Source: Candidatus Nanoarchaeia archaeon (GTDB lineage Archaea > Nanobdellota > Nanobdellia > SCGC-AAA011-G17 > JAFCDX01). From it: 64,000 bases of DNA. This document shows, piece by piece, positions 5,762-25,788 of the stretch. The notes under the pieces were generated by a model. The model saw only the letters and a list, made by a program, of their open reading frames with translations, was not told the origin of the DNA and did no database searches. A program made the translations under genes and the position numbers. How positions within the stretch are numbered: position 1 is the first letter of the stretch; each line of letters starts with the position of its first letter. Location: contig JBAZJB010000001.1 in the NCBI GenBank assembly GCA_041651575.1, forward strand, positions 639,286 through 703,285. Direction: 5' to 3'.

Positions 5762-5800
5762 TTAAATAGATTTATATATTTTTCTTATATAAGTAAATTA

Positions 5801-5834: not shown

Positions 5835-5841
5835 TTTAAAA

Positions 5842-6189: not shown

Positions 6190-6191
6190 AA

Positions 6192-6590: not shown

Positions 6591-6658
6591 GAAATTAAAA
6601 AAGAAAATGAAAAATTTAAAAAACTGTGTTCAGAAAAGCTTAAAGAATTAGAATAGTT

Positions 6659-7261: not shown

Positions 7262-7283
7262 AAAATAAGTGTAATTAGTAAAT

Positions 7284-7871: not shown

Positions 7872-7924
7872 ATCTTTTACTCTTACTATAAATTTAAATA
7901 GATTCTGAAGCTAAAACATATAGG

Positions 7925-8290: not shown

Positions 8291-8339
8291 ACTTTCGCAA
8301 GATTTATATATAAGTTGTGTATACACAGAAGTGTATACC

Positions 8340-8873
8340 ATGAAAGATATATTTGATTCAAAGGTTTTGTGTGAAAAGTGTAATACTTTAACTACAAAGA
8401 AAACTATGGTTAAAGATGGTTTTCAAATTAGAATTCTAGAATGTCCTAAATGTGGTAATATATTATTCCATCCTGTTGATGTAGAAAAATACAACGAATT
8501 CAATAGAATAAAGAAAAAGCAATTCAATGTTAAATTAAGAATGGTTGGTAATTCTTATACAGTATCTATTCCTAAAGAAATTATAGATTTTTTCAATGAG
8601 GAAGAAGAGCAAAAAGATCCTTTTGAACAAATTCATAAGAAAATGAAGGAAGATATGGAAAGAATGAATAGAATGGTTACCTTAGCGTTTAAAGAAGCAA
8701 ATACTTTATCCTTGAATTTTGGTCCTGAAGGAAATTATGAAAGAACAATTGAAAAAGATGGAAACATTGTTACTGAAAAAGCAGAAACTAGAAAGCTACC
8801 AAATGGATTTATTACAAAAAAGATTAGATTAATAAAGTCAAACAAAAACAAAAAGGAACTTGAAAATGAGTGA
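8340..8873 (+). CDS. zinc-ribbon plus AbrB/SpoVT-like domain protein
   Basis: CEKC...CPKCG zinc ribbon followed by [19 protein letters not shown] (SpoVT/AbrB-like swapped hairpin). The ATG at 8340 sits about 30 nt after a TATA box; the track start 8331 is a GTG. Confidence 0.45.
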
Positions 8874-11142: not shown

Positions 11143-11143
11143 A

Positions 11144-11452
11144 ATGAAAACGTTATTGGAACTAAAGAAAGAACTGCAAGATCTCCAAAACAAACATAAA
11201 GATATATCTGATAGAATAGAAACACAAAATAAGATTGATAAATTAAAGGAACAAATTATATTATTAGAATTAAAAAAGATTAAACCTGCAAAAAAAGTTA
11301 ATAATCCTGTTTTGAAGGTTATTAAAACTATTTTTATAGGATTTGGTAAAACAGGAAAGTATATTTGGAATAATGGTTTGAAAGGAATGTTTGAACATTT
11401 AGGAAGAGCAGGGATTAAAATGCACAATCTTGATAATAAAAAAAAGAAATAA
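11144..11452 (+). CDS. small coiled-coil hypothetical protein
   Basis: ATG at 11144 directly follows the cdc48 stop. Charged heptad-like N-terminal half. Confidence 0.35.
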   Translation: MKTLLELKKELQDLQNKHKDISDRIETQNKIDKLKEQIILLELKKIKPAKKVNNPVLKVIKTIFIGFGKTGKYIWNNGLKGMFEHLGRAGIKMHNLDNKKKK

Positions 11453-11453
11453 A

Positions 11454-12101
11454 ATGAGCTTTAAACTATCCCCCAGTTCGTTATCTTTAATGGAAGATTG
11501 TCCTAGATGTTTTTGGCTTACACAACATAAAGTCTGGTCAAGACCTGCATCTATATTTCCTTCTTTACCTTCTGGAATGGATTCTATTTTAAAGAAACAT
11601 TTTGATAAATTTATGGAAAAAGGAGAATTACCTCCTGAATTGAATAAATCTGAGTGTAAAGGTAGTTGTAGCTTGTTTAATGATCAGGAAAAACTAAGTA
11701 TTTGGAGAAGCAATTTTAAAGGCATTTCTTTTACTGATAAAGAGGGAAATATATTACATGGGGCTATTGATAATATACTTGTTAAAGGAAAGAAATTGAT
11801 TGTTTTGGATTATAAGACTAGAGGATTTCCATTAAAAGAAGATACTCATGAACATTATCAGAATCAACTGGATATTTATAATTTTTTACTTAGAAAAAAT
11901 GGATATGAAACAGAAGATTATGGTTTTTTATTGTTTTATCATCCTAAAGAAGTTTTAGAAAATGGGGATGTTGTTTTTAATACTGATCTTAAGAAGATGA
12001 AAATTGATGTTGATAACGCTAAGAAAATATTTATTAAGGCTATTGAGTTGCTAAATAAGGATTGTCCTACTAAACATTGTGTTTGGTGCGAGGGGAAATA
12101 A
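11454..12101 (+). CDS. Cas4-like PD-(D/E)XK nuclease with cysteine cluster (stand-alone, no CRISPR nearby)
   Basis: N-terminal CPRCFWL. GAIDNILV...VLDYKT gives D...(D/E)xK. QLDIYNFLL is QxxxY-like. C-terminal CPTKHCVWC. ATG at 11454. Confidence 0.7.
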   Translation: MSFKLSPSSLSLMEDCPRCFWLTQHKVWSRPASIFPSLPSGMDSILKKHFDKFMEKGELPPELNKSECKGSCSLFNDQEKLSIWRSNFKGISFTDKEGNILHGAIDNILVKGKKLIVLDYKTRGFPLKEDTHEHYQNQLDIYNFLLRKNGYETEDYGFLLFYHPKEVLENGDVVFNTDLKKMKIDVDNAKKIFIKAIELLNKDCPTKHCVWCEGK

Positions 12102-12102
12102 G

Positions 12103-15100
12103 ATGGAAAATTTGTTTTTAACAGATCAGGATGTTATAAAGATTTTTAAAGAACATTTAAAAATAGAAAGCAGGGTTATTCCAATAGAAGAATTATTTAA
12201 GATTAGAAATAAAAATAAAATAGATTTTAAACCTTATTACCAGAGAAATTATGTTTGGAATAATGAAAAAGCATCATATTTTATCGAAAGTTTATTAATT
12301 GGAACAGAAATTCCCCCACTCATTTTTTTCCATGGAAACAATAATAATATTGAGATTATTGATGGTAGGCAAAGATTTGAAACAATATATAATTTTTTAG
12401 AAGATAAATTAACATTAAATGAAAAGGGTTTAATTATACTTAAAAGTTTAGATAAAATAAAGTATTCTAAATTGGCCCCAGAATTATTAACTAGATTTTT
12501 AGAATCTAAGATTAGGGTAATTGATTTTAAATTAATTAATGAACCTAAATTGGATATAAAAAAAGAAGATTTAATTAAAAAAGAAATTTTCAGAAGGTAT
12601 AATTCAGGAATAACTCCTTTGAGAAGGTCCGATGTAGATAAAGCCGTTTTCATAGACGATCCCATTACTAAAAAGCTAAAAGATAAATTTGTTGCAGATA
12701 AAGATTTTTATTTAAAAAATGTAGTGCTATTTTATCCCAAAAAAAGGGATTATAATAGTAAATCTACATTAGAAGAATTAATTTCTAAGATTAGATTATT
12801 ACTCGTTCTTCATTTAATACCTACTAAATATTATTCTACATTAAAAAATAGAAAAGATATAATGAATATGCTTTATAATAAATATTCCGAAGAGCAAGAA
12901 GATTTAACCTCTTTTTTAAATGAATATGAAAAAAAGATATCCTATATTAATAATATTAAAAATAGTTTCAGTACAGATAATTATAACCAATTAATGTCAG
13001 AATGTCTTTTTTGGGTTTTTAATGTTATTGAAAATGAAGGGTACTCATTAAAAGACATTTTAGATGTACCTTTTATAGAAAGTATATCTAAGAGTTTAGA
13101 AAATAATTGTGATATTTATAGTGAAAAAAATTCACATTTTTTTAAAGAATTTAATCAAAGATATAGATTTACTTTAGAGATATTTGAAAAAAAATTAATG
13201 AAAGATTTTAAAATTTATTTAGACTTATATAATGCTAAAGAAGTGAGGGATAACATTGACTTATCCAAAACTGATGAAAAGGCAGGAATTTTAGAAAATT
13301 CATTTATTACAAAACCTGCTCCAATGGATATGACCATAGAATCTATAATTATTAAGATGGAAAGGAATAATTTTAAGGTTAGGCCTATCTATCAAAGAAG
13401 CGAAGTTATGAACATAAGCAAAGCTTCCTCTTTAATTGAAAGTATTTTATTGGATATAAAATTACCTCCTATATTTATTTATAAAAATAAAAATTCTGTT
13501 TCGGAAGTAGTTGATGGACAACAAAGAATTTTAGCTATTTTAGGTTTTATTGGAAAAAGTTATAAAGATGAAAATGGAAATATAGTTAAATCTAATAAAA
13601 ATGATTTTAAATTAAAAAATTTAACCATTTTAAAAGAATTAAATGGTCTTAAATTTAGTCAACTAGAAGAAAAATATCAAAATAGGATATTAGATTTTAA
13701 TTTATTCATTGTTGAAATTGATTCTTCAATTAATGAAAACTTTAATCCAATAGATTTATTTATAAGACTTAATTCTAAACCTTACCCTATTAAAGAAAAT
13801 ACTTTTGAAATGTGGAATTCATATGTGGATATAGAGATAATTAAAAAAATAAAGGAAAATACTAAAAAAATAGAAAATTGGTTTTATATTAAAAAACCCG
13901 AAAGTGATAAAAGGATGGAAAATGAAGAGTTGTATACCACCTTAGTTTATATAAATTATATGCAAGAGTATCAATCTGAGAAATTTTCTAAGATAGTTGA
14001 TATTCATAAAAGGGATGATAGAATTAATTGTAGGATTTCTGATAAAAAGGATATTTCAAAGGTATTAAATTATTCTTCTATAGATGAAAATGAAAAAGAA
14101 AAATTTATTGCTTCTATAAAAAATATTGAAGCAATTATGTTAAAAATCAAGACTTTATTAATAAGATCAAATATAGAAGAAGGAAAATTAGATAATTATC
14201 TAGAAAGTGAATTGGATAAATTATTCTATTTAAAAGCTAGGAGAAGATTACAAAATTTTTATCTTTTATACCCATTGATTAAAAGTATTAATTTAGAAAG
14301 AGTTAGAGAAAAAAGAGAAGAACTTTTTAATGATATTCTTGAGACTTATAAAAGAACCTCGAACCTTAAAGAAAATGAGGATGAGGAAGTTTATTTTGAA
14401 AAAATATCTTTATTGGATGATAAATGGACGCGTGACAAAAGGAAAATAATATTAACTTTAGAAGAAAAGAAACAAATATTATTAAATCAAAAAAATTTCT
14501 GTCCACTTTGTAATTCAGTTCTTTTCCATGGGGAAGATATCGAAGTAGACCATATAATTCCCATTTCCATGGGGGGAAAAGATAAAATAGAGAATTTACA
14601 AATTACTCATAAGGATTGTAACAGGAAAAAAGGAACTAAAAACATTAAAAAATATTTATATGAACCCATTAATTTAGAGGATATTGAAGTATACTTATCT
14701 AAGCACGAAAATGAAAATTTAGAATTTAAATCTACTTTATCCTGGAATATTAAAGGTAAATTAAGAGATACTGAAATTGAAAATTCGGTATTAAAAACTA
14801 TAGCTGCTTTTAATAACTTTGATGGGGGGGTATTACTAATAGGAATTGATGATAATAAGAATATATTGGGATTAGATTATGATTTTAAGGAAGGAAATTT
14901 AAAAGATGTAGACAAATTTGAGAATCATTTAAGGAATATTATCAAAGAAAGATTAATAGCAGAACAATGGTATATATCAAAAAACTTCAAAATTTCTTTT
15001 GAAAACATTGAAAATAAAATAGTTTGTATAATTAAAATTGATAAGGGCACAAAACCAATATATACTAAAGATAACAAATTTTTCATAAGAAACGGAAATA

Positions 15101-15162
15101 GAACTATTCAGTTAGAACTCAGCGAAATTGTACAATATGTAAAAAATAATTTTGAAGAGTGA
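12103..15162 (+). CDS. 1019-aa multidomain protein: DUF262 (ParB-like) x2 + HNH nuclease + AlbA_2/Schlafen-type domain
   Basis: Module 1: YYQRNYVWNNEKASYFIESLL...IIDGRQRFETI. Module 2, from about codon 425: IYQRSEVMNISKASSLIESILL...VVDGQQRILAI. HNH: CPLCNS...EVDHIIPISMGGKDKIENLQITHKDCNRKKG. C-terminus: NLEFKSTL...IAAFNNFDGGVLLIGIDDNKNILGLD. ATG at 12103 lies 1 nt after the Cas4-like stop. Confidence 0.8.
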   Translation: MENLFLTDQDVIKIFKEHLKIESRVIPIEELFKIRNKNKIDFKPYYQRNYVWNNEKASYFIESLLIGTEIPPLIFFHGNNNNIEIIDGRQRFETIYNFLEDKLTLNEKGLIILKSLDKIKYSKLAPELLTRFLESKIRVIDFKLINEPKLDIKKEDLIKKEIFRRYNSGITPLRRSDVDKAVFIDDPITKKLKDKFVADKDFYLKNVVLFYPKKRDYNSKSTLEELISKIRLLLVLHLIPTKYYSTLKNRKDIMNMLYNKYSEEQEDLTSFLNEYEKKISYINNIKNSFSTDNYNQLMSECLFWVFNVIENEGYSLKDILDVPFIESISKSLENNCDIYSEKNSHFFKEFNQRYRFTLEIFEKKLMKDFKIYLDLYNAKEVRDNIDLSKTDEKAGILENSFITKPAPMDMTIESIIIKMERNNFKVRPIYQRSEVMNISKASSLIESILLDIKLPPIFIYKNKNSVSEVVDGQQRILAILGFIGKSYKDENGNIVKSNKNDFKLKNLTILKELNGLKFSQLEEKYQNRILDFNLFIVEIDSSINENFNPIDLFIRLNSKPYPIKENTFEMWNSYVDIEIIKKIKENTKKIENWFYIKKPESDKRMENEELYTTLVYINYMQEYQSEKFSKIVDIHKRDDRINCRISDKKDISKVLNYSSIDENEKEKFIASIKNIEAIMLKIKTLLIRSNIEEGKLDNYLESELDKLFYLKARRRLQNFYLLYPLIKSINLERVREKREELFNDILETYKRTSNLKENEDEEVYFEKISLLDDKWTRDKRKIILTLEEKKQILLNQKNFCPLCNSVLFHGEDIEVDHIIPISMGGKDKIENLQITHKDCNRKKGTKNIKKYLYEPINLEDIEVYLSKHENENLEFKSTLSWNIKGKLRDTEIENSVLKTIAAFNNFDGGVLLIGIDDNKNILGLDYDFKEGNLKDVDKFENHLRNIIKERLIAEQWYISKNFKISFENIENKIVCIIKIDKGTKPIYTKDNKFFIRNGNRTIQLELSEIVQYVKNNFEE

Positions 15163-15217
15163 GTTATTAACTCAAGATTGCCCAAAGAAAACCTGGGAAT
15201 GGCGTGAAGGGAAATGA
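15158..15217 (+). pseudogene. decayed duplicate of the Cas4-like gene 3' end
   Basis: Ungapped alignment to 12042-12101 gives about 39 of 60 nt identical (hand count). Translation SELLTQDCPKKTWEWREGK* versus IELLNKDCPTKHCVWCEGK*. The cluster cysteines are replaced by W and R. Confidence 0.55.
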
Positions 15218-15375
15218 AAAAATTAAAAAAACCAATAAAATTAGAAGATTTATATTATAATACAAAAGGTCCAATTAAAACAATAACTTTTAACACTTTC
15301 AAAACAGTAACTTTTGGTAAACTAAAGAGCGCTATAACTGGAAAAGAAATAACTCTAAGAAAAAAGAAAAAATGA
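15214..15375 (+). CDS. possible 53-aa basic ORF (below the track length cutoff)
   Basis: ATGA overlap with the remnant stop. Translation MKKLKKPIKLEDLYYNTKGPIKTITFNTFKTVTFGKLKSAITGKEITLRKKKK. No family recognised and it may be non-coding. Confidence 0.2.
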   Translation: MKKLKKPIKLEDLYYNTKGPIKTITFNTFKTVTFGKLKSAITGKEITLRKKKK

Positions 15376-15478
15376 GAATTAAAATGATATCCCCTATTTA
15401 TAGGCCTTATAACCTTTGTTTTTAAGCATAATAAACAATCATTAAGTTAAAAATAATAGACTTAATGAATTAACAACC

Positions 15479-15489
15479 TTTATATATAA
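15479..15489 (+). promoter_or_regulatory. TATA box of the hsd operon
   Basis: TTTATATATAA lies 25 nt before the hsdM ATG, the same spacing as other leaderless genes in this window. Confidence 0.5.
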
Positions 15490-15503
15490 GTTCTACATTT
15501 CTA

Positions 15504-17276
15504 ATGAGTATGATATCTAACAAGAAGGATTGGTTAGAGAAAAGATATTACCTTTTATTAGAAGAATTTAAAGATAGAGAATTTGATAGAGAAGAAGTAA
15601 TAAAGGTTTTAACTGAAAAAAGCCATGACTATAAAGACAGTGTACCTGTAATACTGACAGAATTAAAAAATGAGGGTTATCTTAATGTTAGATTAGACCC
15701 AAAAGATTCTAGAAAAAGGCTTTATACTTTAAAATCAAACAATGAAATAATAAAAGAAAAATTAAATTTAAATAAAGAAGTCTTAACAAGACAAGATATT
15801 GATAGAATATTAAAAAAAGCAGCCGATTTAATTAGAACAAGGGTGGATTATAAATTTATACTTATATTACTTTTTTTAAAAAGAATTTCTGATAAATGGG
15901 AAGAAGAATTTGAACATGTATTAAAAGATATAGAAAAAGAGGGTTTATCTGGAGATGCAGCAATTAATGAAGCTAAACGTACAGAATATCATAAATTTGA
16001 TTTACCTGAAGAATACTTATGGGATAATTTAAGGAAAGAGGTTGAAAAACTTCCTGAAAAATTTTCTGAAGCATTGAAAAATATTGCTGAAAGAAATCCC
16101 GAATTGCGAGATGCTTTAGAAAATACTGATTTTATTCAATTTACATCAAATAATGAAAATGCTGAATTATTAAGACAGCTTGTTGAATTATTTTCAGAAA
16201 AGAAATTACATCATGTATCTCCCGATATATTAGGGGATGCCTATGAATGGATTTTGAGATATTTTGCACCAGATAAAGCCAAAGAAGGAGAGGTATATAC
16301 TCCCAGAGAAGTTATTCAACTTATTGTTGAAATCTTAAAACCTTTGGCAAAGGAAAGTGTTTATGATCCGACCTGCGGAAGTTCTGGAATGTTGATTTCT
16401 TCATATAAGTATGTTGAAGAAAAACAAGGAAAAGAAGGAGCAAGAAAATTATTTTTATTTGGACAAGAGTATAATCCTAAGACTTTGGCTTTAGGAAGAA
16501 TGAATATGTATATTCATGATATTAGAGACTTTAATCTACAAGGTGGTGATACTTTGATATATCCAAGATTAAAGCAAGGTGATGAACTACAAAAATTTAA
16601 CATTGTAATCGCAAATCCCCCCTGGAATCAAGATGGTTATGATGAATCAAGACTAAAGCAAGGAGAATTTTGGAAAACCCGTTTTAAATACGGTTTTGTT
16701 CCAGGACAATCAGCAGACTGGGCATGGATTCAGCATATGTTAGCTTCTTCTAAAGATGATACTGGGAGAATTGGGGTTGTCATGGATAATGGTTGTTTAT
16801 TCAGAAGTGGAAAAGAAAAAGCGATTAGGCAAAGAGTAATTGAAGAAGATTTAATAGAAGCAGTCCTTCTTTTGCCAGAAAAATTATTCTATAACACGGG
16901 AGCTCCTGGAGCAATCATTATTTTAAGGAAAAATAAACCTAAAGAAAGAAAAGGGAAGATTCTTTTCATCAATGCTTCAAATGAATATGAAAAACATCCT
17001 GATGTTAGAAAGCTGAATACTCTTACAAAAGAGAATATGAAGAACATAGTTCATGCCTATGACAAGTTTGAATATAAGGAAGGATTCTCAAGGGTGGTTG
17101 ATAAAAAAGAGCTTAAAGAAAATGATTTTAACTTGAATGTTTCATTATATATATATCCAGAAGAGGAACATGAAAATATTGATGTTCATAAAGAATGGTC
17201 TGAACTGAAAACATTAGAAAAAGAGAGAGGCGAATTAGACAAGAAGATTGAATTATTCTTGAAGGAGATAAAGTAA
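15504..17276 (+). CDS. hsdM: type I restriction-modification methyltransferase subunit HsdM with extra N-terminal winged-helix domain
   Basis: Motif I VYDPTCGSSGML. Motif IV IANPPWNQ (NPPW, N6-adenine). HsdM_N-like LFLKRISDKWEEE. The first ~95 aa look wHTH-like (LTELKNEGYLNVRLDPKDSRKRLYTL). Confidence 0.92.
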   Translation: MSMISNKKDWLEKRYYLLLEEFKDREFDREEVIKVLTEKSHDYKDSVPVILTELKNEGYLNVRLDPKDSRKRLYTLKSNNEIIKEKLNLNKEVLTRQDIDRILKKAADLIRTRVDYKFILILLFLKRISDKWEEEFEHVLKDIEKEGLSGDAAINEAKRTEYHKFDLPEEYLWDNLRKEVEKLPEKFSEALKNIAERNPELRDALENTDFIQFTSNNENAELLRQLVELFSEKKLHHVSPDILGDAYEWILRYFAPDKAKEGEVYTPREVIQLIVEILKPLAKESVYDPTCGSSGMLISSYKYVEEKQGKEGARKLFLFGQEYNPKTLALGRMNMYIHDIRDFNLQGGDTLIYPRLKQGDELQKFNIVIANPPWNQDGYDESRLKQGEFWKTRFKYGFVPGQSADWAWIQHMLASSKDDTGRIGVVMDNGCLFRSGKEKAIRQRVIEEDLIEAVLLLPEKLFYNTGAPGAIIILRKNKPKERKGKILFINASNEYEKHPDVRKLNTLTKENMKNIVHAYDKFEYKEGFSRVVDKKELKENDFNLNVSLYIYPEEEHENIDVHKEWSELKTLEKERGELDKKIELFLKEIK

Positions 17277-17277
17277 G

Positions 17278-17577
17278 ATGGAAGTAAAACGAGCTTTCCA
17301 AATTTTAGTTTATGGTATAGTCTTAATTGCCCTAATTGGAACTCTTATTGGGCTTTCCACCAAGGTAGTAGATAATATTATTAATCTATTTATTTCAGCA
17401 GGTTTGGGTTTAGTTTTTGCTGCAATTTCTGGAAAAGTTATTGAATTATTCTCAGATGATACTCTGAAAGAAATATTTTGGACAGTTGAATTTGAACTGT
17501 GGGGCTATGAGATTGAAATACCAATTTCCTTGTTTACTATATTCACAATAATAATTAGATTATGGTGGTTTGGATAA
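17278..17577 (+). CDS. 99-aa three-TM membrane protein embedded in the hsd operon
   Basis: Hydrophobic segments ILVYGIVLIALIGTLIGL, LFISAGLGLVFAAISG and ISLFTIFTIIIRLWWF. Starts 1 nt after the hsdM stop. Confidence 0.55.
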   Translation: MEVKRAFQILVYGIVLIALIGTLIGLSTKVVDNIINLFISAGLGLVFAAISGKVIELFSDDTLKEIFWTVEFELWGYEIEIPISLFTIFTIIIRLWWFG

Positions 17578-17578
17578 A

Positions 17579-18577
17579 ATGGCTAAAAACAAAAACAGAA
17601 AAACTTTAAGAAAACCATTATTGAACCCCGAGTATTATAAGGAATTAGAATCTGATGAAATTTATTCAGATAATACAAGATTGGGAAAAGTTTTTGGAGC
17701 AAAAAATAAGTTAAATAATCAAAAGTTTATTAGGGCAATTTCCGAGTCAAAAAGACCTTATGGATGGAGAAAAAACTATGGGTTTGATTTATTTGATTCA
17801 TTACATTTAGACAAGCTTATAAATTCCTTGAAAAAAATTGCAAGAAAATTTGGATGGAAATTTAAAGATGTTGAAGAAGACTTTTCAAAGCTAAAAGAGG
17901 GTATAAGGCAACAACAAGAAATAATCTCAAATTTAAGTAAAGCAAATAAGGATGCAAAAGTTAATTATGAAATATTACTTAAAAAATATAAGGAACAGGA
18001 AGAAAAGGAGATTATAAGCAGGGCTAGCGAATTTAATACAGCAATAGAAAATTTAAGAAGCAAAATCCTGGAAGTAGAAAGTAGGCGTATAGCAGAAAGC
18101 GAACTACAAGAATTTTTATATAAAAACAGTTGGATGTTGGGAACAGAATATATTAGCTCAGAGCCTCAAAAGATGAGGGGTGCAAGGAGTAGATTTGATT
18201 TTTATCTGGAAAGATTTAACAAAACTAATGATGTTGTTGAAATTAAATTATTATCTGACAAGATAATAAATCAAGATGAGAGCATAAGTGCAAAAGTAAT
18301 TCAAGCAGTAGATCAATTAATTGACTATTTAGAAAAAACAATTAGCGTTGCACATAGTACAACGGAATCTGAAGAAGAAGGAATAAAAGAATTAAGACCG
18401 AGAGGAATTTTGATAATAGGAAAGGACAATTCTTTAGAAGCGAAAAAAAAGTTAAATAAATGGAATTATCAATTTGTCCATATTCATATTTATACTTACC
18501 AAGATATTTTAGAAAAAGCAGAAGCATTAATGAAACATATTGAAAAGAGAAAACATAAAAATGAAACAACAAACTAA
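17579..18577 (+). CDS. Shedu-like (DUF4263) PD-(D/E)xK nuclease-domain protein with coiled-coil N-terminal half
   Basis: C-terminal half reads ESELQEFLYKNSWMLGTEY...SRFDFYL...DVVEIKLL...AVDQLIDYLEK...PRGILIIGK...IHIYTYQDILEKAE. This follows the DUF4263/SduA nuclease pattern (D...ExK, Q..Y, viG, tYd.ll). ATG at 17579. Confidence 0.65.
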   Translation: MAKNKNRKTLRKPLLNPEYYKELESDEIYSDNTRLGKVFGAKNKLNNQKFIRAISESKRPYGWRKNYGFDLFDSLHLDKLINSLKKIARKFGWKFKDVEEDFSKLKEGIRQQQEIISNLSKANKDAKVNYEILLKKYKEQEEKEIISRASEFNTAIENLRSKILEVESRRIAESELQEFLYKNSWMLGTEYISSEPQKMRGARSRFDFYLERFNKTNDVVEIKLLSDKIINQDESISAKVIQAVDQLIDYLEKTISVAHSTTESEEEGIKELRPRGILIIGKDNSLEAKKKLNKWNYQFVHIHIYTYQDILEKAEALMKHIEKRKHKNETTN

Positions 18578-19757
18578 AATCCCTGAAAATTGGAAATTGA
18601 AAGAAATAAAAGAAATCTTTAGTGTTGAGACCGGAACAACGCCCCCAACCAAAGAAAAGATTTACTGGGAAAATGCTACAATAAACTGGGCAACTCCTGC
18701 TGATCTTGGAAAACTAAATGGAAATATACATTTTCAAGAGAGTGAAAGGAAGATTTCTAAAACTGCATTGAATGACATAAATTTAACATTGATGCCCAAG
18801 AATACTATTATTGTTTCGACAAGAGCCCCAGTGGGATATGCAGTTGTCATAAAAAAAGAGAGTACATTTAACCAGGGATGCAAGGGTCTCATTCCTAAAA
18901 AAGAAAATGATGCTGATCCATATTTCTATTGTTATTATTTAATAAATAAAAAGTATGAATTACAAAATCGAGCTGGGCAAAGCACATTTAAGGAGCTGTC
19001 TAAAGATATGTTTGAAAGTTTTGAGGTATTACATCCTCCATTTGAAGAACAAAAAGCAATTTCTAAGATTTTTTCAGAAGTTGATTTAGAATTAGATAGT
19101 ATAGAGAGAGAGAGACAAGCAACAGAGCGACTCAAGAGGGGTATTATGGTAAGGTTGCTCGAAGGGAAAAAATGGAAGGTTGTTAAATTGGGAGAGATAG
19201 TAGAATTTGCGAAGGGCAAAAAACCCCAACTAATGATTGATGAACAAAAAGAAGATTATCTGCCTTATTTGTCTACGGACTATTTAAGAGAAAACTTAGG
19301 AACTAAATATGTTTCCCCTTCAGAAGATGTGGTCTTAGTTAAAAATGGAGAAATAATACTATTGTGGGACGGCTCAAATGCCGGAGAATTTTTTGAAGGA
19401 AAAGAAGGAGTTTTATCAACCACAATGGTTAAATTTGATCTTAAAACGGACATTCATCAAAAATATCTTTTATATCTGTTAAAGTCTAAACAATTTTATC
19501 TACAAGGACAAACAAATGGAACAGGGATACCTCATGTTGATAGAAAAGTTTTGATGAATTTAGATATTTCTTTGCCTCTAATTGAAGAACAAAAACATAT
19601 CGCTGAAATATTAAACACCCTAGATCAAAAACTTGAGCTTGAACTAAAAAGAAAAGATAAACTTGAAAGAATCAAGAAAGGTTTAATGAATGATCTCCTA
19701 GCTGGAAATAAAAGAGTCAATATTGAAAAGGTCTTGAAAATTGGGGGCGGAAAATGA
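18561..19757 (+). CDS. hsdS: type I R-M specificity subunit HsdS (two target-recognition domains)
   Basis: IPENWKLKEIKEIFSVETGTTPP and WKVVKLGEIVEFAKGKKP start two TRDs. Conserved helical spacers are EEQKAISKIFSEVD and EEQKHIAEILNTLD. Confidence 0.85.
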   Translation: MKQQTKIPENWKLKEIKEIFSVETGTTPPTKEKIYWENATINWATPADLGKLNGNIHFQESERKISKTALNDINLTLMPKNTIIVSTRAPVGYAVVIKKESTFNQGCKGLIPKKENDADPYFYCYYLINKKYELQNRAGQSTFKELSKDMFESFEVLHPPFEEQKAISKIFSEVDLELDSIERERQATERLKRGIMVRLLEGKKWKVVKLGEIVEFAKGKKPQLMIDEQKEDYLPYLSTDYLRENLGTKYVSPSEDVVLVKNGEIILLWDGSNAGEFFEGKEGVLSTTMVKFDLKTDIHQKYLLYLLKSKQFYLQGQTNGTGIPHVDRKVLMNLDISLPLIEEQKHIAEILNTLDQKLELELKRKDKLERIKKGLMNDLLAGNKRVNIEKVLKIGGGK

Positions 19758-20494
19758 CTTTTGATGATGAAACAAAACAGAGAATCTTTCAACAGGCTAT
19801 TGATATTTTTGTAATCCCTGAAATAGAAAGGAGAAAAAAGATAAATAAATTACCTTCAGATTTTAAATTAGATAAAATCCAAATTATATTTTCTTCCAAG
19901 AGTGGAAGAAATTATGTAAGACTAAATAAGGAAGTTGATGTAATTATTAAATGCAAGGTAAATAAGCCTATCAAAAAAGGGGATATAGTTTATGAGAACG
20001 ATATAGATCAAATTGAGTCAGTTGAACTAACAAAAGGAGATTTAAATTATGGGCATATTACTTTATTAGCTTTTAAGGGGAATTGGATAGTTTCATTTAA
20101 TTTTATTTATAATAAAGAAGAAATTAAGAAGCATATTGAAGCATCTAAAGAGTTCTATGAAAGTGCAAAAGATAATTTAGAAAAGAAAAGATTAAGACCT
20201 TTTTTTGAGAATGCTTTTGCTTGTGCTGAATTATTTACTAAAAGTGTATTATTATCTTTGCCAAATAAAAAGTTCTTTGAAGGAAAAGACCATCGAAAAA
20301 AAAAGGAGTTTCTTAAAAATTGGGCAAATTTAGGAAATGTTAAAATTGAGTTTAGCACGACCTTGTCTAAACTATACTCTCTGAGAAGTTCAGCGAGGTA
20401 TCTTTCTTCTGATAACTACAAAAAAGAAAATGCTAAAGGAATACTTTCAATATTAGATGAGATGATTAAATCTTCGGAGGACCTAACAAAATGA
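19754..20494 (+). CDS. protein with C-terminal classical HEPN-like domain, embedded between hsdS and hsdR
   Basis: AFACAELFTKSVLL...GKDHRKKKEFL...LSKLYSLRSSARYLSSD follows the HEPN helical pattern (KavLl..H..l...L..lR..a.Y). The N-terminal ~120 aa are unassigned. ATGA overlaps on both sides. Confidence 0.45.
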   Translation: MTFDDETKQRIFQQAIDIFVIPEIERRKKINKLPSDFKLDKIQIIFSSKSGRNYVRLNKEVDVIIKCKVNKPIKKGDIVYENDIDQIESVELTKGDLNYGHITLLAFKGNWIVSFNFIYNKEEIKKHIEASKEFYESAKDNLEKKRLRPFFENAFACAELFTKSVLLSLPNKKFFEGKDHRKKKEFLKNWANLGNVKIEFSTTLSKLYSLRSSARYLSSDNYKKENAKGILSILDEMIKSSEDLTK

Positions 20495-23400
20495 CACAAC
20501 AAAATGAAAAGAAACTGGTAGAGAATTATATGATTGATAAGTTTGTTAATCAGAATAAATGGACTTACATTCCTGGAGGCAAACTTGAAAGAGAAAGCAA
20601 TGAAGAGCCTCTTTTAATTAAGAATCTTGTTTCTGCTATAAAGAAGATAAATGATACTAATTTATCTGAAGAAGATATTCAAGAAGTTTTGAAACAACTT
20701 AGATTAAGAGGCGTTGGGGTTGATGATTCTAAAAAGATTTTAGGATTCTTTAAGTTTGGAGTTTCAGTAAAACTCTCTAAGACTAAAGAGCTTGTTAGAG
20801 TCAAGTTATTTGATTATGATCATGTTGATAACAACGAGTTTATTGTAACTAATCAAATTCATTATGAATCTTCAGCTGGGGAAATTATTCCAGACATTGT
20901 TTTGTATGTTAATGGTATACCTTTAGTTATAATCGAATGTAAAGATATGACTTCTTCGTCTACAAGTTGGAAAGATGCTTATAATGATATTGTTGGAATT
21001 TATAGAAATAAGGTTAGAGAACCCTTCAAGTATTTTCAAATTGGAGTTGCAGCAGAACAAAAAGTAAAATATTTTCCAATAGTTTCGTGGGCTGAGGATA
21101 TTAAAGTTTGTGAGTGGAGAGATGAAAATAGAATAGAATTAGGAACAGATAGTTCTATGACTGGAATATTTGAGATGCTAACTAAAGAAGGCTTATTAAA
21201 TCTTATTAGAGATTTCATTTTTGTAAGAGAAGAGGGGGGAGAGAAAACAAAAGTAATTACAAGATATATGCAATATAGGGCAGTTAATAAAATCGTGGAT
21301 AGGGTTAAAACCAACATAGAAGGAAAAGAAAAAAAGAACAAAGGTTTAGTTTGGCATTGGCAAGGATCAGGAAAAACATTGACAATGGCTTTTGCAGCGC
21401 ACAAATTGTATTATCTTAAAGAATTAGAAAATCCAACCCTCTTTTTTATTTTAGATAGAACCGAACTTGAAGAACAGATGTATAATGAATTAAATGCTTT
21501 AGAGATGCCAAAAGTAGAGTCTATAGGATCAATTCAAGAATTAAAAAGAATATTAGAATATGATGAAGGAAAAGGTAAAAGAGGATTATTTACAATACTT
21601 ATCCATAAGTTTAGACCTGGAGACTTTGAAGATTTAAGAAAAGAATTAGAAAATAAGGATGTAGATAAACAAACCTTTTTGACAAGAAAAAATGTTATCG
21701 CTTTTATTGATGAAAGTCATAGATCTCAATATGGTCTACTTGCTTCTCAGATGAAAGCACTTTTAAAAAATGCTTTCTTTTTTGCATTTACTGGAACACC
21801 AATAAACAAAAAAGATAATAAAAATACATATCTTGAATTTGCTTATCCCCCCACCGAATTATATCTTGATAAATATTTTATTAAAGATGCCATTAGTGAT
21901 GGATTTACTTTAAAAATAGCTTATCAACCAAGACTTGAAAAAGAAGTTCATCTAAAAACAGACCAACTTACAATTTTGTTAGAAGCTGAAGATGTAGAAC
22001 TACCAGATGAAAAAAGAAAAGAATTTCAAGAAAGAGTAAAGAAAAATATTACAATACAAAAAGCTTATTATAAAAATAGGGAAAGAATAAAGAGGATTAG
22101 CGAAGATATAACAAAACACTTCAAAGAAAATCTCGATGGAAGATTTAAAGCGATGATAGTTGCAGTTGATAGAGAAGCTTGCGTTCATTATAAAGAAGAA
22201 TTAGACAAATTATTGCCGGGATATTCAGAAATTGTAATGACTTTTACCTCTGATGAGAGATCTAAAGATATTCAAGAATATCTGAATAAACTTCATGAAA
22301 GATTCCCAAATAAAGAACTTTCTGAAATAATGAAAGAAATTACTGGAAAATTCAAAGAAGAAGAGAATCCAAAAATACTAATTGTTACAGATATGTTACT
22401 TACTGGTTTTGATGCTCCTATTTTGCAAACAATGTATTTAGATAAACCCCTAAGAGAACATAGGTTATTACAAGCAATAGCAAGAACTAATCGTCCATTT
22501 AAAAATGTTAAAGAAGCAGGTTTAATTGTAGATTATTTAGGAATATTAAAAGAATTTAAGAAAGCTTTTGAAATTTATACAAAAGAGGATATCAAAGGAG
22601 CTCTTTATGATCTGAATGAAATTAAGAAAGAGTTTGAAGATTTACTTAAAGAAACTTTAGATTTATTTAAAGATTATCCTGAAAGAAAATTGGATAGCAG
22701 GGTATATTTATTGGAAATAGTGAGAAGTTTATTAGCTGATTCTCTTAAATTAAGGAAATTTATAGATAATATTAAAGAGTTAAGAAAAAAGTTTGAACTT
22801 CTTGGATCAGATGAATCCAAAGTAATTTATTATAAAGAATTGATTTGGCTTGAGGCAATATATGAAACCTATAAAAAAGAAGTATATCAAGAGACAGAAG
22901 ATGAAACTGATACTTATTTAAGAAAATATTTTGCTAAAACAATTAGATTTATTCACAAAAGCACAGAAATTGAGAATCTTAAAGAAAACTTACCTGTTAT
23001 AGATTTTGATGAGAATTATATTAAAAAATTAGAAGAAAAATATAAAACTAAAGAAGAAAGAGCCGCAAACATTGTATTTACATTAAATAGGTATATACTT
23101 GTGGATAGAGATGACAAAAAACTTTATGAAACTTTAATTGATAAAGTACAAAGATTATTTGATTCTTGGAGAACTAAAACAAAAGATTTTGAAACAATTT
23201 ATAAGGAAGGAATAAAAATCATTCAAGAAAGAAATAAACTTCTTCAAAGGAAGAAAGATCTTAAATTAAGTAATTTTGAATTTTCATCATTAATCCTTTT
23301 AGAAAAAAAGATAGGGGAAGAAAAAGTTCTTATAGAAGATATTAAAGAATTAGCAAAAGAGCTTTTCAGTGAGAAATATATATTCACAAATTGGACATCT

Positions 23401-23547
23401 CAAATTTTTACTAAAAAAGAAATTCAAAAAGTAATAAGGAAGTTATTACTAGGTTATATTAAAAAATATAATCTATCTATAGAAGATGTTAATGAGCTAA
23501 GCTTAAAAATATTTGAAAACTTGAAACAATATGAAAAAAGAGGTTAA
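20491..23547 (+). CDS. hsdR: type I restriction enzyme subunit HsdR
   Basis: N-terminal nuclease IPDIVLYVNGIPLVIIECK. Helicase motif I WHWQGSGKTLTMAF, motif II FIDESHRSQ, and QAIARTNRP. 1018 aa. Confidence 0.92.
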   Translation: MTQQNEKKLVENYMIDKFVNQNKWTYIPGGKLERESNEEPLLIKNLVSAIKKINDTNLSEEDIQEVLKQLRLRGVGVDDSKKILGFFKFGVSVKLSKTKELVRVKLFDYDHVDNNEFIVTNQIHYESSAGEIIPDIVLYVNGIPLVIIECKDMTSSSTSWKDAYNDIVGIYRNKVREPFKYFQIGVAAEQKVKYFPIVSWAEDIKVCEWRDENRIELGTDSSMTGIFEMLTKEGLLNLIRDFIFVREEGGEKTKVITRYMQYRAVNKIVDRVKTNIEGKEKKNKGLVWHWQGSGKTLTMAFAAHKLYYLKELENPTLFFILDRTELEEQMYNELNALEMPKVESIGSIQELKRILEYDEGKGKRGLFTILIHKFRPGDFEDLRKELENKDVDKQTFLTRKNVIAFIDESHRSQYGLLASQMKALLKNAFFFAFTGTPINKKDNKNTYLEFAYPPTELYLDKYFIKDAISDGFTLKIAYQPRLEKEVHLKTDQLTILLEAEDVELPDEKRKEFQERVKKNITIQKAYYKNRERIKRISEDITKHFKENLDGRFKAMIVAVDREACVHYKEELDKLLPGYSEIVMTFTSDERSKDIQEYLNKLHERFPNKELSEIMKEITGKFKEEENPKILIVTDMLLTGFDAPILQTMYLDKPLREHRLLQAIARTNRPFKNVKEAGLIVDYLGILKEFKKAFEIYTKEDIKGALYDLNEIKKEFEDLLKETLDLFKDYPERKLDSRVYLLEIVRSLLADSLKLRKFIDNIKELRKKFELLGSDESKVIYYKELIWLEAIYETYKKEVYQETEDETDTYLRKYFAKTIRFIHKSTEIENLKENLPVIDFDENYIKKLEEKYKTKEERAANIVFTLNRYILVDRDDKKLYETLIDKVQRLFDSWRTKTKDFETIYKEGIKIIQERNKLLQRKKDLKLSNFEFSSLILLEKKIGEEKVLIEDIKELAKELFSEKYIFTNWTSQIFTKKEIQKVIRKLLLGYIKKYNLSIEDVNELSLKIFENLKQYEKRG

Positions 23548-24106
23548 AATATTTAATTCAAGCATACAATATTGTATAGATTATCGTAGTGTGAAATATC
23601 CTAGATTAGAATTTAGAACAGGAATGTTAAATATCATACTTCCCTATGATTATGAAAATGAGCATAATCTATTAAATATACATAAAAATTGGATAATAAA
23701 AAAACAGAGAGCTATTAATTTTGCATTAAATAAATCAAAGGACAAACAATTAATAAATAGAAATTTAAATAACTTAAAAAAGATTGTTTTAGATTATTAT
23801 AACAAAAATTCCAATAATTTTAAAGCTAAAAAAATACAATTTAGACATATGAAATCAAAATGGGGGAGTTGTAGTTCAGATAAAGTTTTGACCTTTAATT
23901 CACTTTTAAGATTTTTACCTCTAAATCTTATTCAATATGTTGTTTATCATGAAATGTTACATCTCAAAGAAAAAAAACACAATAAAACCTTTTGGAATAT
24001 CATTTCTAAAAAGTTTACGAATTATCCATTAAAAGAAAAAGATTTATTTATATATTGGTTTTTAATACAAAAAAATTATAATTTAAATTTTTCTTTAAAA
24101 CTATAA
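23531..24106 (+). CDS. DUF45/YgjP-type zinc metallopeptidase-fold protein
   Basis: VVYHEMLHLKEKKHNKTFW (HExxH...H) and the N-terminal Y.l.rs.r pattern (CIDYRSVKYPRLEF). 17-nt overlap with the hsdR end. Confidence 0.72.
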   Translation: MKKEVKIFNSSIQYCIDYRSVKYPRLEFRTGMLNIILPYDYENEHNLLNIHKNWIIKKQRAINFALNKSKDKQLINRNLNNLKKIVLDYYNKNSNNFKAKKIQFRHMKSKWGSCSSDKVLTFNSLLRFLPLNLIQYVVYHEMLHLKEKKHNKTFWNIISKKFTNYPLKEKDLFIYWFLIQKNYNLNFSLKL

Positions 24107-24750
24107 TAATTATCCTTTCCCAAAATAATATGATCTAATAAAGGTATATTTAAAATTTCTCCTACTTCTTTTATTTTAACTGTAGTAAATATGTCTCCTT
24201 CACTAGGATTACAATCTCCAGAAGGATGATTATGGACTAAAATAATAGATTTAGCACTTTCTCTAATAGCTTCCTTAAAAATTTCTCTTGGATGTGCTAA
24301 AGAACTATCCAAAGTACCAATACTAACAACAGTTCTTTTAATAATCTTATTTTTAACATCTAAATACAAACAAATAAAATATTCTTTTTTCTCATTTCCA
24401 TATTCATCAACTAATAAATCATAAACATCCTTAGCACAACTAATACTATTTTTAAAACCTTCACGTTTTAATTTATTATATCTTTTAAAAAGTTCAATTA
24501 AGCTTAAAACCTTTAAAACTTTAACTTTATCACCTTTAAACTCTCTTAAAAGTTCATTAAAACCAAGATCTTCAAGTTTATTCAAGTTATATTTCTTTAA
24601 TAGTCTATTACTCATCTCTAAAGCACTTTCTCTATAACTTCCTTCCCAAAAGAGAATAGATAATAACTCTGCTTCATCTAAATTTTTAGCTCCTTTTCTA
24701 ATTAATTTAGAATCGGGTCTATTAAACGAAGGAAGATCAAAGATTCTCAT
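24076..24750 (-). CDS. radC: RadC-like JAB/MPN domain protein
   Basis: ILVHNHPSGDCNPSEGD (JAMM-like HxHPSG) and an N-terminal HhH-like region AELLSILF. Converges on the DUF45 gene with a 31-nt overlap. Confidence 0.85.
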   Translation of the reverse strand: MRIFDLPSFNRPDSKLIRKGAKNLDEAELLSILFWEGSYRESALEMSNRLLKKYNLNKLEDLGFNELLREFKGDKVKVLKVLSLIELFKRYNKLKREGFKNSISCAKDVYDLLVDEYGNEKKEYFICLYLDVKNKIIKRTVVSIGTLDSSLAHPREIFKEAIRESAKSIILVHNHPSGDCNPSEGDIFTTVKIKEVGEILNIPLLDHIILGKDNYYSFKEKFKL

Positions 24751-24917: not shown

Positions 24918-25412
24918 TTATTTTTTAATAAGATATTTTTCTATGTCTTCTAAACTAATTTTAACATATCCTTTCACAATATTTTTTGTATCTCTTCTCA
25001 TTATATAAGCATATTTGTCTGCATTAGAACCTTCAGGTAATTTGACATAATTAATTAAAATATTTAATCCTAATTTATCTTTTAAAAATGATTTTAGGTT
25101 AGAAGTAATATCTTTTTCGTGACCTTGAAAATCTCTGCATATTTCTAATTTAATTTCTTCTTTTTTATTGAAAATATTAATTTCTTTAAAAATATAATAA
25201 ATAATTATACAATATAATCTTACTCTGAAAAATGCCTTTCCTTGTTTAGAAAGGTTATATCTGTATTTACCTTCTCCTTTTCTAGAATTTAAAATTTCTA
25301 TTAATTCTTTAGTAAATTTAAAACCTCTTATCAAATTATTTTTATCTGCTACAACAATAGAATAATTACTATTTAAAATATCCTCACCACTTACATCTAT
25401 TTCGAATATCAT
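24918..25412 (-). CDS. hypothetical protein
   Basis: 164-aa ORF with no recognisable motif. Confidence 0.45.
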   Translation of the reverse strand: MIFEIDVSGEDILNSNYSIVVADKNNLIRGFKFTKELIEILNSRKGEGKYRYNLSKQGKAFFRVRLYCIIIYYIFKEINIFNKKEEIKLEICRDFQGHEKDITSNLKSFLKDKLGLNILINYVKLPEGSNADKYAYIMRRDTKNIVKGYVKISLEDIEKYLIKK

Positions 25413-25493: not shown

Positions 25494-25497
25494 CATC

Positions 25498-25680
25498 TTA
25501 ATTAAAACTATTCAAATTATACTTAAAAACCAACCTATTAGCCAATTCCAAAGCACTTTCCTGCATAGAACCTCTTCCAAAAATAATAGCTAATAATTCA
25601 GCACTATCCAAAGAACTTGCTCCATTTTTCTCTAATTTATAGCCAGGACGATTAAACCAAGGTAATTCTTTAATGTGCAT
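25498..25680 (-). pseudogene. 5' fragment of a second radC paralogue (60 codons, no JAB domain)
   Basis: MHIKELPWFNRPGYKLEKNGASSLDSAELLAIIF... aligns to the RadC N-terminus MRIFDLPSFNRPDSKLIRKGAKNLDEAELLSILF. The ORF runs into repeat R2a and stops. Confidence 0.6.
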
Positions 25681-25788
25681 AAAAAACTCAATAAAAACCT
25701 AATTATAAGCATTATTAAAAAAGAATATACATTATTGTAACATTTAAGTTCCATATATAATAAAAAGCATCCAAAAAGGGTTTAAATG

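Follow-up and report, generated by a model that had tools for sequence, protein, structure and literature searches.

Introduction

Orphan modules left by sequential or C-terminal displacement are known from type VI secretion system (T6SS), Rhs, and contact-dependent inhibition (CDI) loci, where they have been attributed to homology-facilitated illegitimate recombination (Poole, 2011, PMC3150448; Kirchberger, 2017, PMC5361080; for displacement with orphan modules at such loci, Jackson, 2009, as cited in PMC5361080). Here, we describe a comparable arrangement in archaeal DNA, namely a stretch of 64,000 nucleotides (nt) from Candidatus Nanoarchaeia archaeon (GenBank assembly GCA_041651575.1, contig JBAZJB010000001.1, positions 639,286 to 703,285), hereafter called the window. 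In this stretch, a giant defense-type gene stands between an intact gene for a Cas4-like nuclease and a second, decayed copy of that gene's 3' end. The same order of an intact gene, foreign DNA, and an orphan terminal fragment in the same orientation is found in relatives, and it is probably explained by displacement of gene ends, that is, by insertion of the giant gene just 3' of the Cas4-like gene with the old tail pushed aside.

Insertion-duplication, a Campbell-type single crossover, also yields an intact gene, an insert, and a truncated terminal copy; the repeat is as long as the shared homology, and either gene end can be involved. It is familiar from laboratory use and from plasmids. 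Lambdoid phage 21 and e14 insert into the 3' end of icd and bring a replacement end that differs mostly synonymously, so that the original end comes to lie beyond the element. On a larger scale, two reports describe defense hotspots between conserved core genes in Pseudomonas aeruginosa (the cDHS; PMC10250203) and Escherichia coli (PMC10121019). Solo-Cas4 genes are encoded by most DPANN archaea, and their adjacency to restriction-modification (R-M) genes suggests a role in defense, according to one survey (PMC5704561).

Paired Cas4-like tails in the window

The last 19 codons and the stop of the Cas4-like gene align without gaps to 60 nt at the far end of the giant gene (coordinates in Table 1). 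Identity amounts to 40/60 nt, where an earlier note on this DNA, which first pointed out the match, had counted 39 by hand. The translations of the attached tail (at the end of the intact gene) and of the orphan tail (behind the giant gene) are IELLNKDCPTKHCVWCEGK and SELLTQDCPKKTWEWREGK, each followed by a stop, and 11/19 residues are identical, as the earlier note had stated. Its description of the junctions, with each stop abutting or overlapping the next ATG, is likewise accurate: the attached tail passes into the next open reading frame (ORF) through TAA-G-ATG (12099-12105, with the ATG at 12103), and the orphan tail ends in ATGA, its own TGA (15215-17) overlapping the ATG at 15214. The frame of the orphan tail differs from that of the giant ORF, whose TGA stop (15160-62) falls in the orphan's first bases. 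The longest identical run between the two tails is 7 nt, and their best-conserved block is the last 12 nt (GA.GGGAAAT.A).

The position of this block raises the question of whether the similarity is due to chance or to convergence on a shared G-rich ribosome-binding and stop-start context in AT-rich DNA. Two further results point in that direction. Six of 304 native 60-mers of the window also match at least 40/60 elsewhere in it, and a gapped alignment under +2/-3 scoring is marginal, its score being reached by 18/1000 shuffles and 20/494 native windows (p ~0.02-0.04). Because this harsh scoring is unsuited to 65% identity, ungapped, +1/-1, and profile tests were used instead, and in these the similarity lies well above the shuffled AT-rich controls that the earlier note had called for. 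Elsewhere in the window, on both strands, the runner-up match of the 60-mer is 32/60, and 300 shuffled 60-mer queries reach a maximum of 36 matches. Comparison of the 300 nt upstream with the 330 nt downstream of the giant gene under +1/-1 scoring gives z = 5.7, with 0/300 shuffles as high. The strongest test employs nhmmer with nucleotide profiles of the tails of ~160 family members, the window's own gene being left out. The 30-codon profile finds the orphan at 15149/15161-15211 with E = 6.1e-6 and the 19-codon profile with E = 1.6e-3; the next tail-profile match in the 64 kb has E = 0.2.

The match spans 51-63 nt, and the orphan reads DCPKK.WEW.EGK, codon by codon along the family consensus (AIKLLNxDCPxKxCEWCEGx), including the K and E that are replaced by T and V in the resident gene. 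Its identity to the ~160 family tails averages 60% (best 72-74%), and these tails match the orphan about as well as the resident tail does (38/57, 67%). Codon changes have turned the invariant C209 into W and C212 into R, whereas C204 is kept; the loss of two putative Fe-S cysteines in the second copy had been noticed earlier. These results show 15158-15217 to be a dead relic of a Cas4-like gene tail. Chance similarity is very improbable given the profile match obtained without the window gene, the run of the match along the family consensus, the place of the relic exactly behind an inserted gene (which was no search criterion), and twelve analogous orphans in relatives. An extension of the relic upstream, to 15134 by tblastn or 15149 by nhmmer, was rejected. 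The bases concerned encode VKNNFEE, the native C-terminus of the giant protein, which is conserved in homologs, and the similarity upstream of the relic is treated as chance or microhomology.

Strain-variable hotspots are prone to misassembly, and two strain variants of this one might have been stitched into a single contig. However, the 4 kb from 11454 to 15520 are identical base for base in ENA ERZ27247363 (a 447-kb contig) and in Logan SRR8542065, the tail copies share no k-mer able to mislead an assembler (the longest run being the 7 nt given above), and the most elaborate of the related arrays (L048, below) was likewise recovered twice. Since the same sequence occurs in two further assemblies, an assembly artifact has a next to negligible probability.

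The giant gene as cargo

The giant protein contains two DUF262/GmrSD_N domains (PF03235, 2.3e-30), an HNH domain (PF01844, 1.9e-11), and a Schlafen/AlbA_2 domain (SLFN_AlbA_2, 9.4e-19). It thus has the N-terminal DUF262 domain of GmrSD, whereas Pfam gives no match in it to the C-terminal DUF1524 domain (GmrSD_C) of true GmrSD. The best PADLOC match is NsnA (1.8e-55), and PD-T4-2_A and PtuB also match. Both termini are collinear with homologs P0122-P0128, which have the same length and the same first and last residues, and nucleotide similarity to the relatives of the gene starts at the ATG and stops at the last codons. These relatives have a TATA-like upstream sequence that is replaced by the Cas4-like tail in the window, where no promoter-like sequence belonging to the giant gene precedes it. 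Pfam detects no transposase domain in this cargo.

Homologs with 53-69% identity occur in seven other contexts, none of them beside a Cas4-like gene; they are placed between TrmB and the rpl3 operon, beside insertion sequence (IS) elements, between an MmeI-type enzyme and a RadC fragment, and beside Fic, an N6-methyltransferase, or V-ATPase genes. The earlier note had allowed for an ancestral pair of Cas4-like and DUF262 genes; among ~160 relatives, a DUF262/HNH gene lies 3' of the Cas4-like gene only at L015, and it is 34% identical to the giant gene. Together with the flank test and the relic profile, the homolog contexts support that note's view of a single-gene cassette between an intact and a dead Cas4-like tail. 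By comparison of loci, the giant gene is shown to be inserted cargo, foreign to the site, and not an ancestral partner of the Cas4-like gene. The suggested search for the same flanks around homologs of the giant gene had a divided outcome: none of six loci tested has a flank repeat (z <=2.7, against 5.7 in the window), whereas such flanks do occur around other cargo at the same Cas4-like gene in relatives. This amends the earlier view in that the flank repeat belongs to the site, that is, to the Cas4-like gene, and not to the giant gene.

Some additional features of the giant gene deserve mention. Its bacterial homologs of 850 aa (Bacillus, Clostridium, cyanobacteria) are 43-47% identical and have no AlbA_2 domain; they suggest a wider horizontal history, in which the giant-gene family appears to have crossed domains. 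In one locus (L194, 440-3486), the archaeal version comes as two genes, one of 847 aa and one of 164 aa for the AlbA_2 domain. In another (L091, 7807-8193), the 3' end of a giant-gene homolog is overlapped by a 128-aa ORF whose sole domain is the N-terminal one of RadC. The inserted giant gene carries the native operon junction of this region, a stop and an ATG separated by one base (read as TAA-N-ATG), which is found between CDC48 and a 102-aa ORF (11142-11146), between this ORF and the Cas4-like gene (11450-11456), and between the Cas4-like and giant genes. ORF coordinates alone indicate the same one-base spacing for hsdM and the 99-aa ORF (17274-17280) and for the 99-aa ORF and SduA (17575-17581).

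Recurrence of the footprint in relatives

Loci around Cas4-like homologs (80 from genomes and 80 from metagenomes) were scanned by protein hidden Markov models, and nucleotide profiles of five 35-codon segments of the Cas4-like gene were run over 1.65 Mb of related loci. Thirteen terminal orphans emerged, each made of the first <=90 nt or the last <=160 nt of the gene, and the majority adjoin TA or defense cargo. Seven are independent head orphans (two at L009, three at L048, one each at L136 and L154), and six are tail orphans (the window, L057, L065, L079, L096, and L154). The five-segment scan of the 1.65 Mb yielded no orphan of the three internal segments. Ten of the 13 orphans lie on the strand of the gene at a distance of 0.5-3.5 kb with cargo (Table 1) in between, the exceptions being L079, L136, and one L009 fragment. 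Inner boundaries vary, from +49 to +87 nt in the heads and from codon 166 to codon 199 in the tails, and the repeats measure 44-157 nt; all head fragments end just past the ECPRCFWL codons.

The array at L048 repeats the unit three times in the order fragment, toxin-antitoxin (TA) pair, and so on up to the intact gene. Each TA pair is preceded by ~60-90 nt of the Cas4-like 5' end, ~75-85% identical in DNA to the gene, and the pairs themselves are, by eye, highly divergent from one another. The stop of the last HEPN gene overlaps the ATG of the Cas4-like gene, and the array was found again, at 99.4% identity, in a second assembly. At L079 (8649-8733), an intact, GC-rich second tail, MMEEKVWRGALELLEGECPSGKCEWCEGV followed by a stop, immediately adjoins the resident stop; the two tails have no cargo between them, and an MmeI-like R-M gene lies 3' of the orphan tail. 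This tail is clearly foreign, and such a topology would arise if an incoming block had a foreign tail as its left end. The second head fragment at L009 (14896-14984) is ~6 kb downstream of the Cas4-like gene, on the far side of an acetyl-CoA synthetase gene, and flanks no evident cargo.

A blind scan of 1678 ORFs indicates that terminal orphans are almost confined to the Cas4-like gene (~10/165 loci) and RadC (2/~12), the two RadC cases being the window and L062. At L062 (3783-3839), the first 19 RadC codons are repeated with 100% aa identity 1.4 kb upstream of the gene, and a Fic-like gene lies between. These scans show that both ends of the Cas4-like gene, and only its ends, bear the footprint repeatedly. 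At the solo Cas4-like gene and RadC in DPANN, it is a recurrent footprint, undescribed as far as we have found, and the window bracket is one old instance.

Recurrence also bears on two enzymatic explanations. If integration were site specific, whether integron-like or by a tyrosine recombinase, the gene ends would be attachment (att) sites and the fragments att remnants. The tandem array at L048, the compactness of cassettes in which an ORF abuts the fragment, and the common end of the head fragments just after ECPRCFWL would suit this idea, as would tyrosine recombinase genes 1-2 kb downstream of the Cas4-like gene in L039 and L043. The length range of attC sites, moreover, takes in repeats of ~50-160 nt. 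However, no integrase is present in or beside any bracket, and there is no Phage_integrase among the tested window ORFs (11135-28662). Boundaries vary by 40-100 nt, the two gene ends differ in sequence, the junctions have no identical core (as the 7-nt longest run of the window pair illustrates), and 0/14 fragments fold better than shuffles as single-stranded DNA (z -2.1 to +1.5), with no attC-like hairpins. Site-specific integration is, on balance, improbable. A 15-nt repeat near the L043 integrase was rejected as a chance match inside an unrelated ORF with no flanking similarity.

Homing driven by a nuclease would begin with a cut in an empty allele near the gene end, made by the HNH domain of the giant gene, the HNH-motif ORF of L057, or an R-M enzyme, and repair would then copy the cargo together with the donor end. 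A break inside the gene end followed by donor copying would give the order fragment, cargo, gene with boundaries clustered near the break, and two cargoes could encode the nuclease: the giant gene with its HNH domain and the single small ORF of L057, whose HNH-like motif was recognized by eye and has no Pfam match. Most cargo (MNT+HEPN, the DUF2283-containing pair, Fic) is without a DNA endonuclease, however; homologs of the giant gene occupy seven unrelated sites, and the architecture of that gene is one of a defense enzyme, not of a homing endonuclease. We accordingly give homing little chance.

Allelic and local origins of the orphan ends

A different possibility is duplication in situ, whereby the giant ORF would have been captured at a staggered break, or through replication slippage, in the tail; a target of ~57 nt would have been duplicated and its downstream copy would have decayed. 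Several properties of the orphans agree with such a history. In the window pair, 5 synonymous differences stand against 12 nonsynonymous ones and two invariant cysteines are lost, as in a decaying copy; TGAGTT microhomology is present at the right junction; and young orphans are each most similar to the attached copy of the same genome.

In contrast, the nine younger pairs differ by 54 synonymous and 16 nonsynonymous codon changes, 56/82 of their nt differences are at third positions, and in-frame stops occur in 0/9 fragments. Random changes in these codons would be 81% nonsynonymous. When in-situ duplication is simulated with the gene copy under constraint and the orphan evolving neutrally, 61-71% of the differences are nonsynonymous, and 0/1200 simulations are as low as observed, which is incompatible with neutral decay of a local copy. 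The synonymous excess indicates that the fragments diverged as parts of working genes in different lineages and therefore were joined by recombination only afterward. On this codon evidence, the young orphans are shown to be ends of once-functional, diverged alleles and not in-situ target duplications. Duplication in situ is further countered by the variable length of the repeats (44-157 nt), by the absence of a transposase and of terminal inverted repeats that would mark a transposon or IS element, by the lack of flank repeats around the giant gene in six other contexts tested, and by the L079 tail, which is intact and clearly foreign. It is an unlikely explanation.

The earlier note's phrase of a duplicate left to decay consequently holds in part. 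The window orphan has decayed, and the window pair is older than the nine younger brackets; its 5:12 ratio is compatible with local and allelic origin alike. In the younger brackets, the fragments are allelic ends, as the 54:16 ratio indicates. Mosaic identity in the RadC bracket and at L009, where ~50 nt upstream of the start are ~95% identical and the coding part 62-84%, is, with the variable inner boundaries, a sign of recombination. A search with the L065 orphan peptide in a collection of 5.8 billion proteins returned no candidate donor allele, and nearest-relative comparison was uninformative as to the native copy of the window pair, no relative being closer than ~80% nt.

The Cas4-like anchor gene

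The Cas4-like protein passes the PF12705 PDDEXK_1 cut-off (39.4 bits, cut-off 22). With PF01930 Cas_Cas4 it scores 18.1 bits, below the gathering cut-off of 22.7, which places it outside PF01930/COG1468, and PADLOC Cas4 models match it weakly (E 3.5e-8 to 2e-5). A sequence search of the PDB with the family profile gave no match, and only fold comparison did: with an AlphaFold2 (AF2) model (pLDDT 85.6), the top Foldseek matches are the AdnA nuclease, Cas4 in Cas4-Cas1-Cas2 (7mi5, 8d3l), MGME1, and RecE (E 5e-6 to 1e-4, TM ~0.4-0.5). The gene product is thus a solo-Cas4-type nuclease with a predicted PD-(D/E)XK fold of the RecB/Cas4 type. Its 3669 homologs are 65-81% identical, and in 33 sequences the N-terminal C16 and C19 and the C-terminal C204, C209, and C212 are invariant. 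Neither cas1/cas2 nor a CRISPR array adjoins the gene, whose neighbors are CDC48, the 102-aa ORF, and defense genes.

The protein retains its 65-81% identity across genomes in which CDC48 is ~50% identical, RadC 40-48%, Fic 48%, and the M24 peptidase 34%, and in which gene order is not conserved. G+C at third codon positions (GC3) is 0.197 in the Cas4-like gene and island genes against 0.129 in the rest of the window (p = 1e-5). Taken by itself, the Cas4-like gene (0.20) groups with the island genes and not with core genes (0.10-0.14). The IMG/VR matches, of which only 1/16 is a close relative, do not support a viral or plasmid origin of the gene. Likewise, the idea that gene ends are preferred crossover sites because they are the best-conserved DNA fails for the 3' tail, where windowed nucleotide identity is 0.61-0.64, compared with 0.68 overall and 0.78 at codons 116-125.

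The island and its RadC border

The window organism is a DPANN archaeon with 27% G+C, and its relatives are labelled Pacearchaeota, Woesearchaeota, or Nanoarchaeota. Beyond the relic lies a putative ORF of 53 aa. The earlier note had expected an empty site in which this ORF directly follows the Cas4-like gene. No such site was found; neither the ORF nor 15218-15503 has a protein or nucleotide match in 171 loci, and the ORF has no Pfam match. The R-M operon further downstream has the order hsdM, a 99-aa transmembrane protein, Shedu-like SduA_C, hsdS, HEPN, and hsdR, that is, with three extra genes inside it (the 99-aa membrane protein, SduA_C at 17579-18577, and HEPN at 19754-20494) and 1-nt or overlapping junctions.

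The far border of the 12-kb island is formed by RadC, behind which a second bracket follows. Here, a 164-aa ORF separates the resident RadC gene from an orphan RadC head that reaches 25378 by tblastn. Orphan and resident are 46% identical over 99 residues; the ~50 nt upstream of the ATG are ~95% identical between the copies, the coding part ~62%, and GC3 is 0.23 in the orphan head against 0.11 in resident RadC. RadC, at the other edge of the island, thus bears the same footprint as the Cas4-like gene.

In L064 and L069, the Cas4-like gene is convergent with RadC at a distance of a few to ~40 nt, which is the empty version of the larger hotspot; the same interval in the window holds 12 kb of defense genes. 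What lies beside the Cas4-like gene changes in almost every genome: over ~70 loci, each side comprises ~80 Pfam families, and R-M enzymes, MNT/HEPN, Fic, and RadC are frequent among them. The best explanation of these gene contents is that the Cas4-like gene and RadC border a variable defense and TA island in DPANN of the Pacearchaeota/Woesearchaeota type. Neighbor turnover, the empty version, GC3, and conservation fit a recombination hotspot in which exchange includes the anchor gene itself. Within 30 kb there is no tRNA gene. The locus of the closest relative is represented by two assemblies that are 99.4% identical; the hsdR that follows its Cas4-like gene is fragmented into several ORFs in one of them (L083, 8689-11749) and measures 891+ aa in the other (L084, 8689-11361), which reflects either decay in progress or sequencing error.

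Table 1. Features of the window and cargo found at bracketed loci of relatives.
Locus	Feature	Position	Strand	Basis or remark
Window	Cas4-like nuclease gene, 215 aa, intact, hotspot anchor	11454..12101	+	Pfam, PADLOC, AF2/Foldseek, homologs
Window	Attached tail, last 19 codons and stop of the Cas4-like gene	12042..12101	+	G-rich end GAGGGGAAATAA just 5' of the giant gene's ATG
Window	Giant defense-type gene, 1019 aa, 3.06 kb, complete	12103..15162	+	Pfam, PADLOC, homolog collinearity
Window	Orphan (displaced) Cas4-like tail, non-functional 57-nt relic	15158..15217	+	Alignment, nhmmer profile, family consensus
Window	Putative Lys-rich ORF, 53 aa, ATGA-coupled to the orphan tail	15214..15375	+	Presumed original downstream cistron
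Window	Rest of island: type I R-M operon and YgjP-like metallopeptidase	15504..24106	+	TATA-like TTTATATA at ~15478
Window	Second anchor gene, RadC (JAB), in convergent orientation to the Cas4-like gene, bounding the 12-kb island on its far side	24076..24750	-	PF04002 1e-44
Window	164-aa ORF, cargo of the second bracket, no function assigned	24918..25412	-	
Window	Orphan head (-50 to +172) from a diverged RadC allele	25509..25729	-	E 3e-17; UPF0758_N
L009	Cargo: three small ORFs
L048	Cargo: MNT+HEPN pairs in the array fragment-TA-fragment-TA-fragment-TA-gene	4461-8651		= L151 493-4683
L057	Cargo: one 174-aa ORF			HNH-like motif by eye, no Pfam match
L065	Cargo: MNT+HepT pair
L096	Cargo: 102-aa ORF and DUF2283 gene			102-aa ORF without Pfam match
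L136	Cargo: MNT+HEPN pair			Further MNT+HEPN pair upstream of the fragment
L154	Cargo: 3' end, 162-aa ORF; 5' end, Fic gene

Proposed mechanism

Displacement of the old tail by an insertion just 3' of the Cas4-like gene, which we consider the probable origin of the window locus, could proceed as follows. DNA from a related lineage would enter with the end of its own Cas4-like allele, followed by cargo, and would integrate with the Cas4-like gene as homology anchor. This could happen by a single crossover of a circularized piece, as in insertion-duplication, or by a homologous join on one side and an illegitimate or microhomology join on the other. The product would consist of an intact gene with one tail, the cargo, and the other tail, pushed downstream and still attached to its old cistron, the 53-aa ORF. 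Having no function as protein, the displaced tail would decay, and its last ~12 nt (GAAGGGAAATGA) may persist as ribosome-binding and stop-start context for the next ORF. We infer, rather than observe, the recombination route, the identity of the window tail that arrived with the cargo, and the relic's role in ribosome binding.

Displacement accounts for several features of the brackets. Only terminal fragments would be seen because the gene must stay whole, and the model also explains footprints at both gene ends, arrays, and the lack of a recombinase. In the window, it further explains the usual TAA-N-ATG operon junction between gene and cargo and the ATGA that the relic keeps to its old neighbor.

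Several points weigh against displacement. The cargo stop is within 3 nt of the orphan in 3/5 tail brackets, which is tighter than a random illegitimate join predicts. All orphans are <=160 nt, for which instability of long direct repeats is our guess. Detection by coding-sequence profiles favors copies that diverged conservatively. The window pair, at 5:12, is too old for a synonymous bias, and for the young orphans, each closest to the attached copy of its own genome, no donor allele was identified. Nor did any genome turn up with a close homolog of the giant gene behind a Cas4-like gene, which leaves no candidate donor. With no relative above 81% aa identity in the collections, the true empty allele was not seen, and the Cas4-like 3' tail is no peak of nucleotide conservation. 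Finally, we know of no demonstration of homologous recombination or DNA uptake in these uncultured archaea.

A bolder extension, which we offer as speculation with rather low odds, is that the Cas4-like gene and RadC are docking genes of an integrase-free system of cassette capture in DPANN. Gene-end fragments would then serve as portable recombination handles with which promoterless defense and TA cassettes hop between lineages and stack into arrays, and the Cas4-like nuclease might promote the joins. If true, this would explain both the far stronger conservation of the Cas4-like protein (65-81%, against ~50% for CDC48) between genomes of scrambled gene order and the island-like codon composition of its gene.

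Significance

The genomes of DPANN archaea are tiny, cultured genetic systems are lacking, recognized mobile elements are few, and how these archaea acquire and shuffle defense genes is little understood. Orphan gene ends offer datable, countable scars of single between-lineage transfers at one fixed address. They show that no integrase is needed for the entry of cargo, which ranges from single ORFs to 3 kb. The two anchor genes, solo Cas4-like and RadC, are places to look for new defense or TA genes. For annotation, short conserved peptides after defense genes in these genomes should be regarded as displaced gene ends and not as small genes. The role of solo-Cas4 in organisms without CRISPR is put as an open question in the solo-Cas4 passages of PMC5704561, and because the Cas4-like gene constantly borders a cassette hotspot, a connection with DNA acquisition becomes testable.

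Comparison with known systems

Among processes that duplicate a gene end, insertion-duplication shares with the present loci the intact gene, the insert, and the one truncated terminal copy. It differs in that no circular intermediate or plasmid with this gene end was found, 1/16 viral-contig matches being a close relative. Phage 21 and e14 are similar in that the target gene is kept intact by a substitute end. However, they encode an integrase and have an identical core at both junctions, whereas the present brackets lack both and have variable boundaries. Integron arrays resemble the brackets in their tight, promoterless cassettes of one or two genes, often TA, stacked beside one fixed gene. 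In contrast to integrons, no IntI is present here, the repeat is a fragment of the neighboring gene, and it forms no significant hairpin.

Defense hotspots in P. aeruginosa (cDHS) and E. coli likewise hold a variable defense load between fixed flanks and occur in empty and filled versions, comparable to L064/L069 and the window, respectively. The flanks here are the solo Cas4-like gene and RadC. To our knowledge, fragments of flank-gene ends have not been described in the work on those hotspots. The solo-Cas4 of DPANN beside R-M genes agrees with the present gene in both kind and context (Hudaiberdiev et al., 2017, PMC5704561); the solo-Cas4 passages of that survey make no mention of orphan gene ends or cassette brackets, and the survey deals with pfam12705 proteins only briefly.

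Known analogs are the Rhs, CdiA, and T6SS loci. As in these, an intact gene is followed by incoming DNA and by the displaced old end in the same orientation, successive events produce arrays, orphans (here, those of the nine younger brackets) derive from functional alleles of other strains, and no dedicated recombinase takes part, a homologous anchor and an illegitimate join being proposed instead. There, however, the displaced tip is a variable toxin domain with its immunity gene and is itself what the exchange serves. In the present loci, a conserved cysteine motif of a nuclease forms the tip, which is a by-product, and the payload is a separate defense or TA gene; moreover, both the 5' and the 3' end are used, and in archaea. 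What is new, then, is a variant form, at the solo Cas4-like gene and RadC of DPANN, of the displacement and orphan-module phenomenon already known at Rhs, CDI, and T6SS loci.

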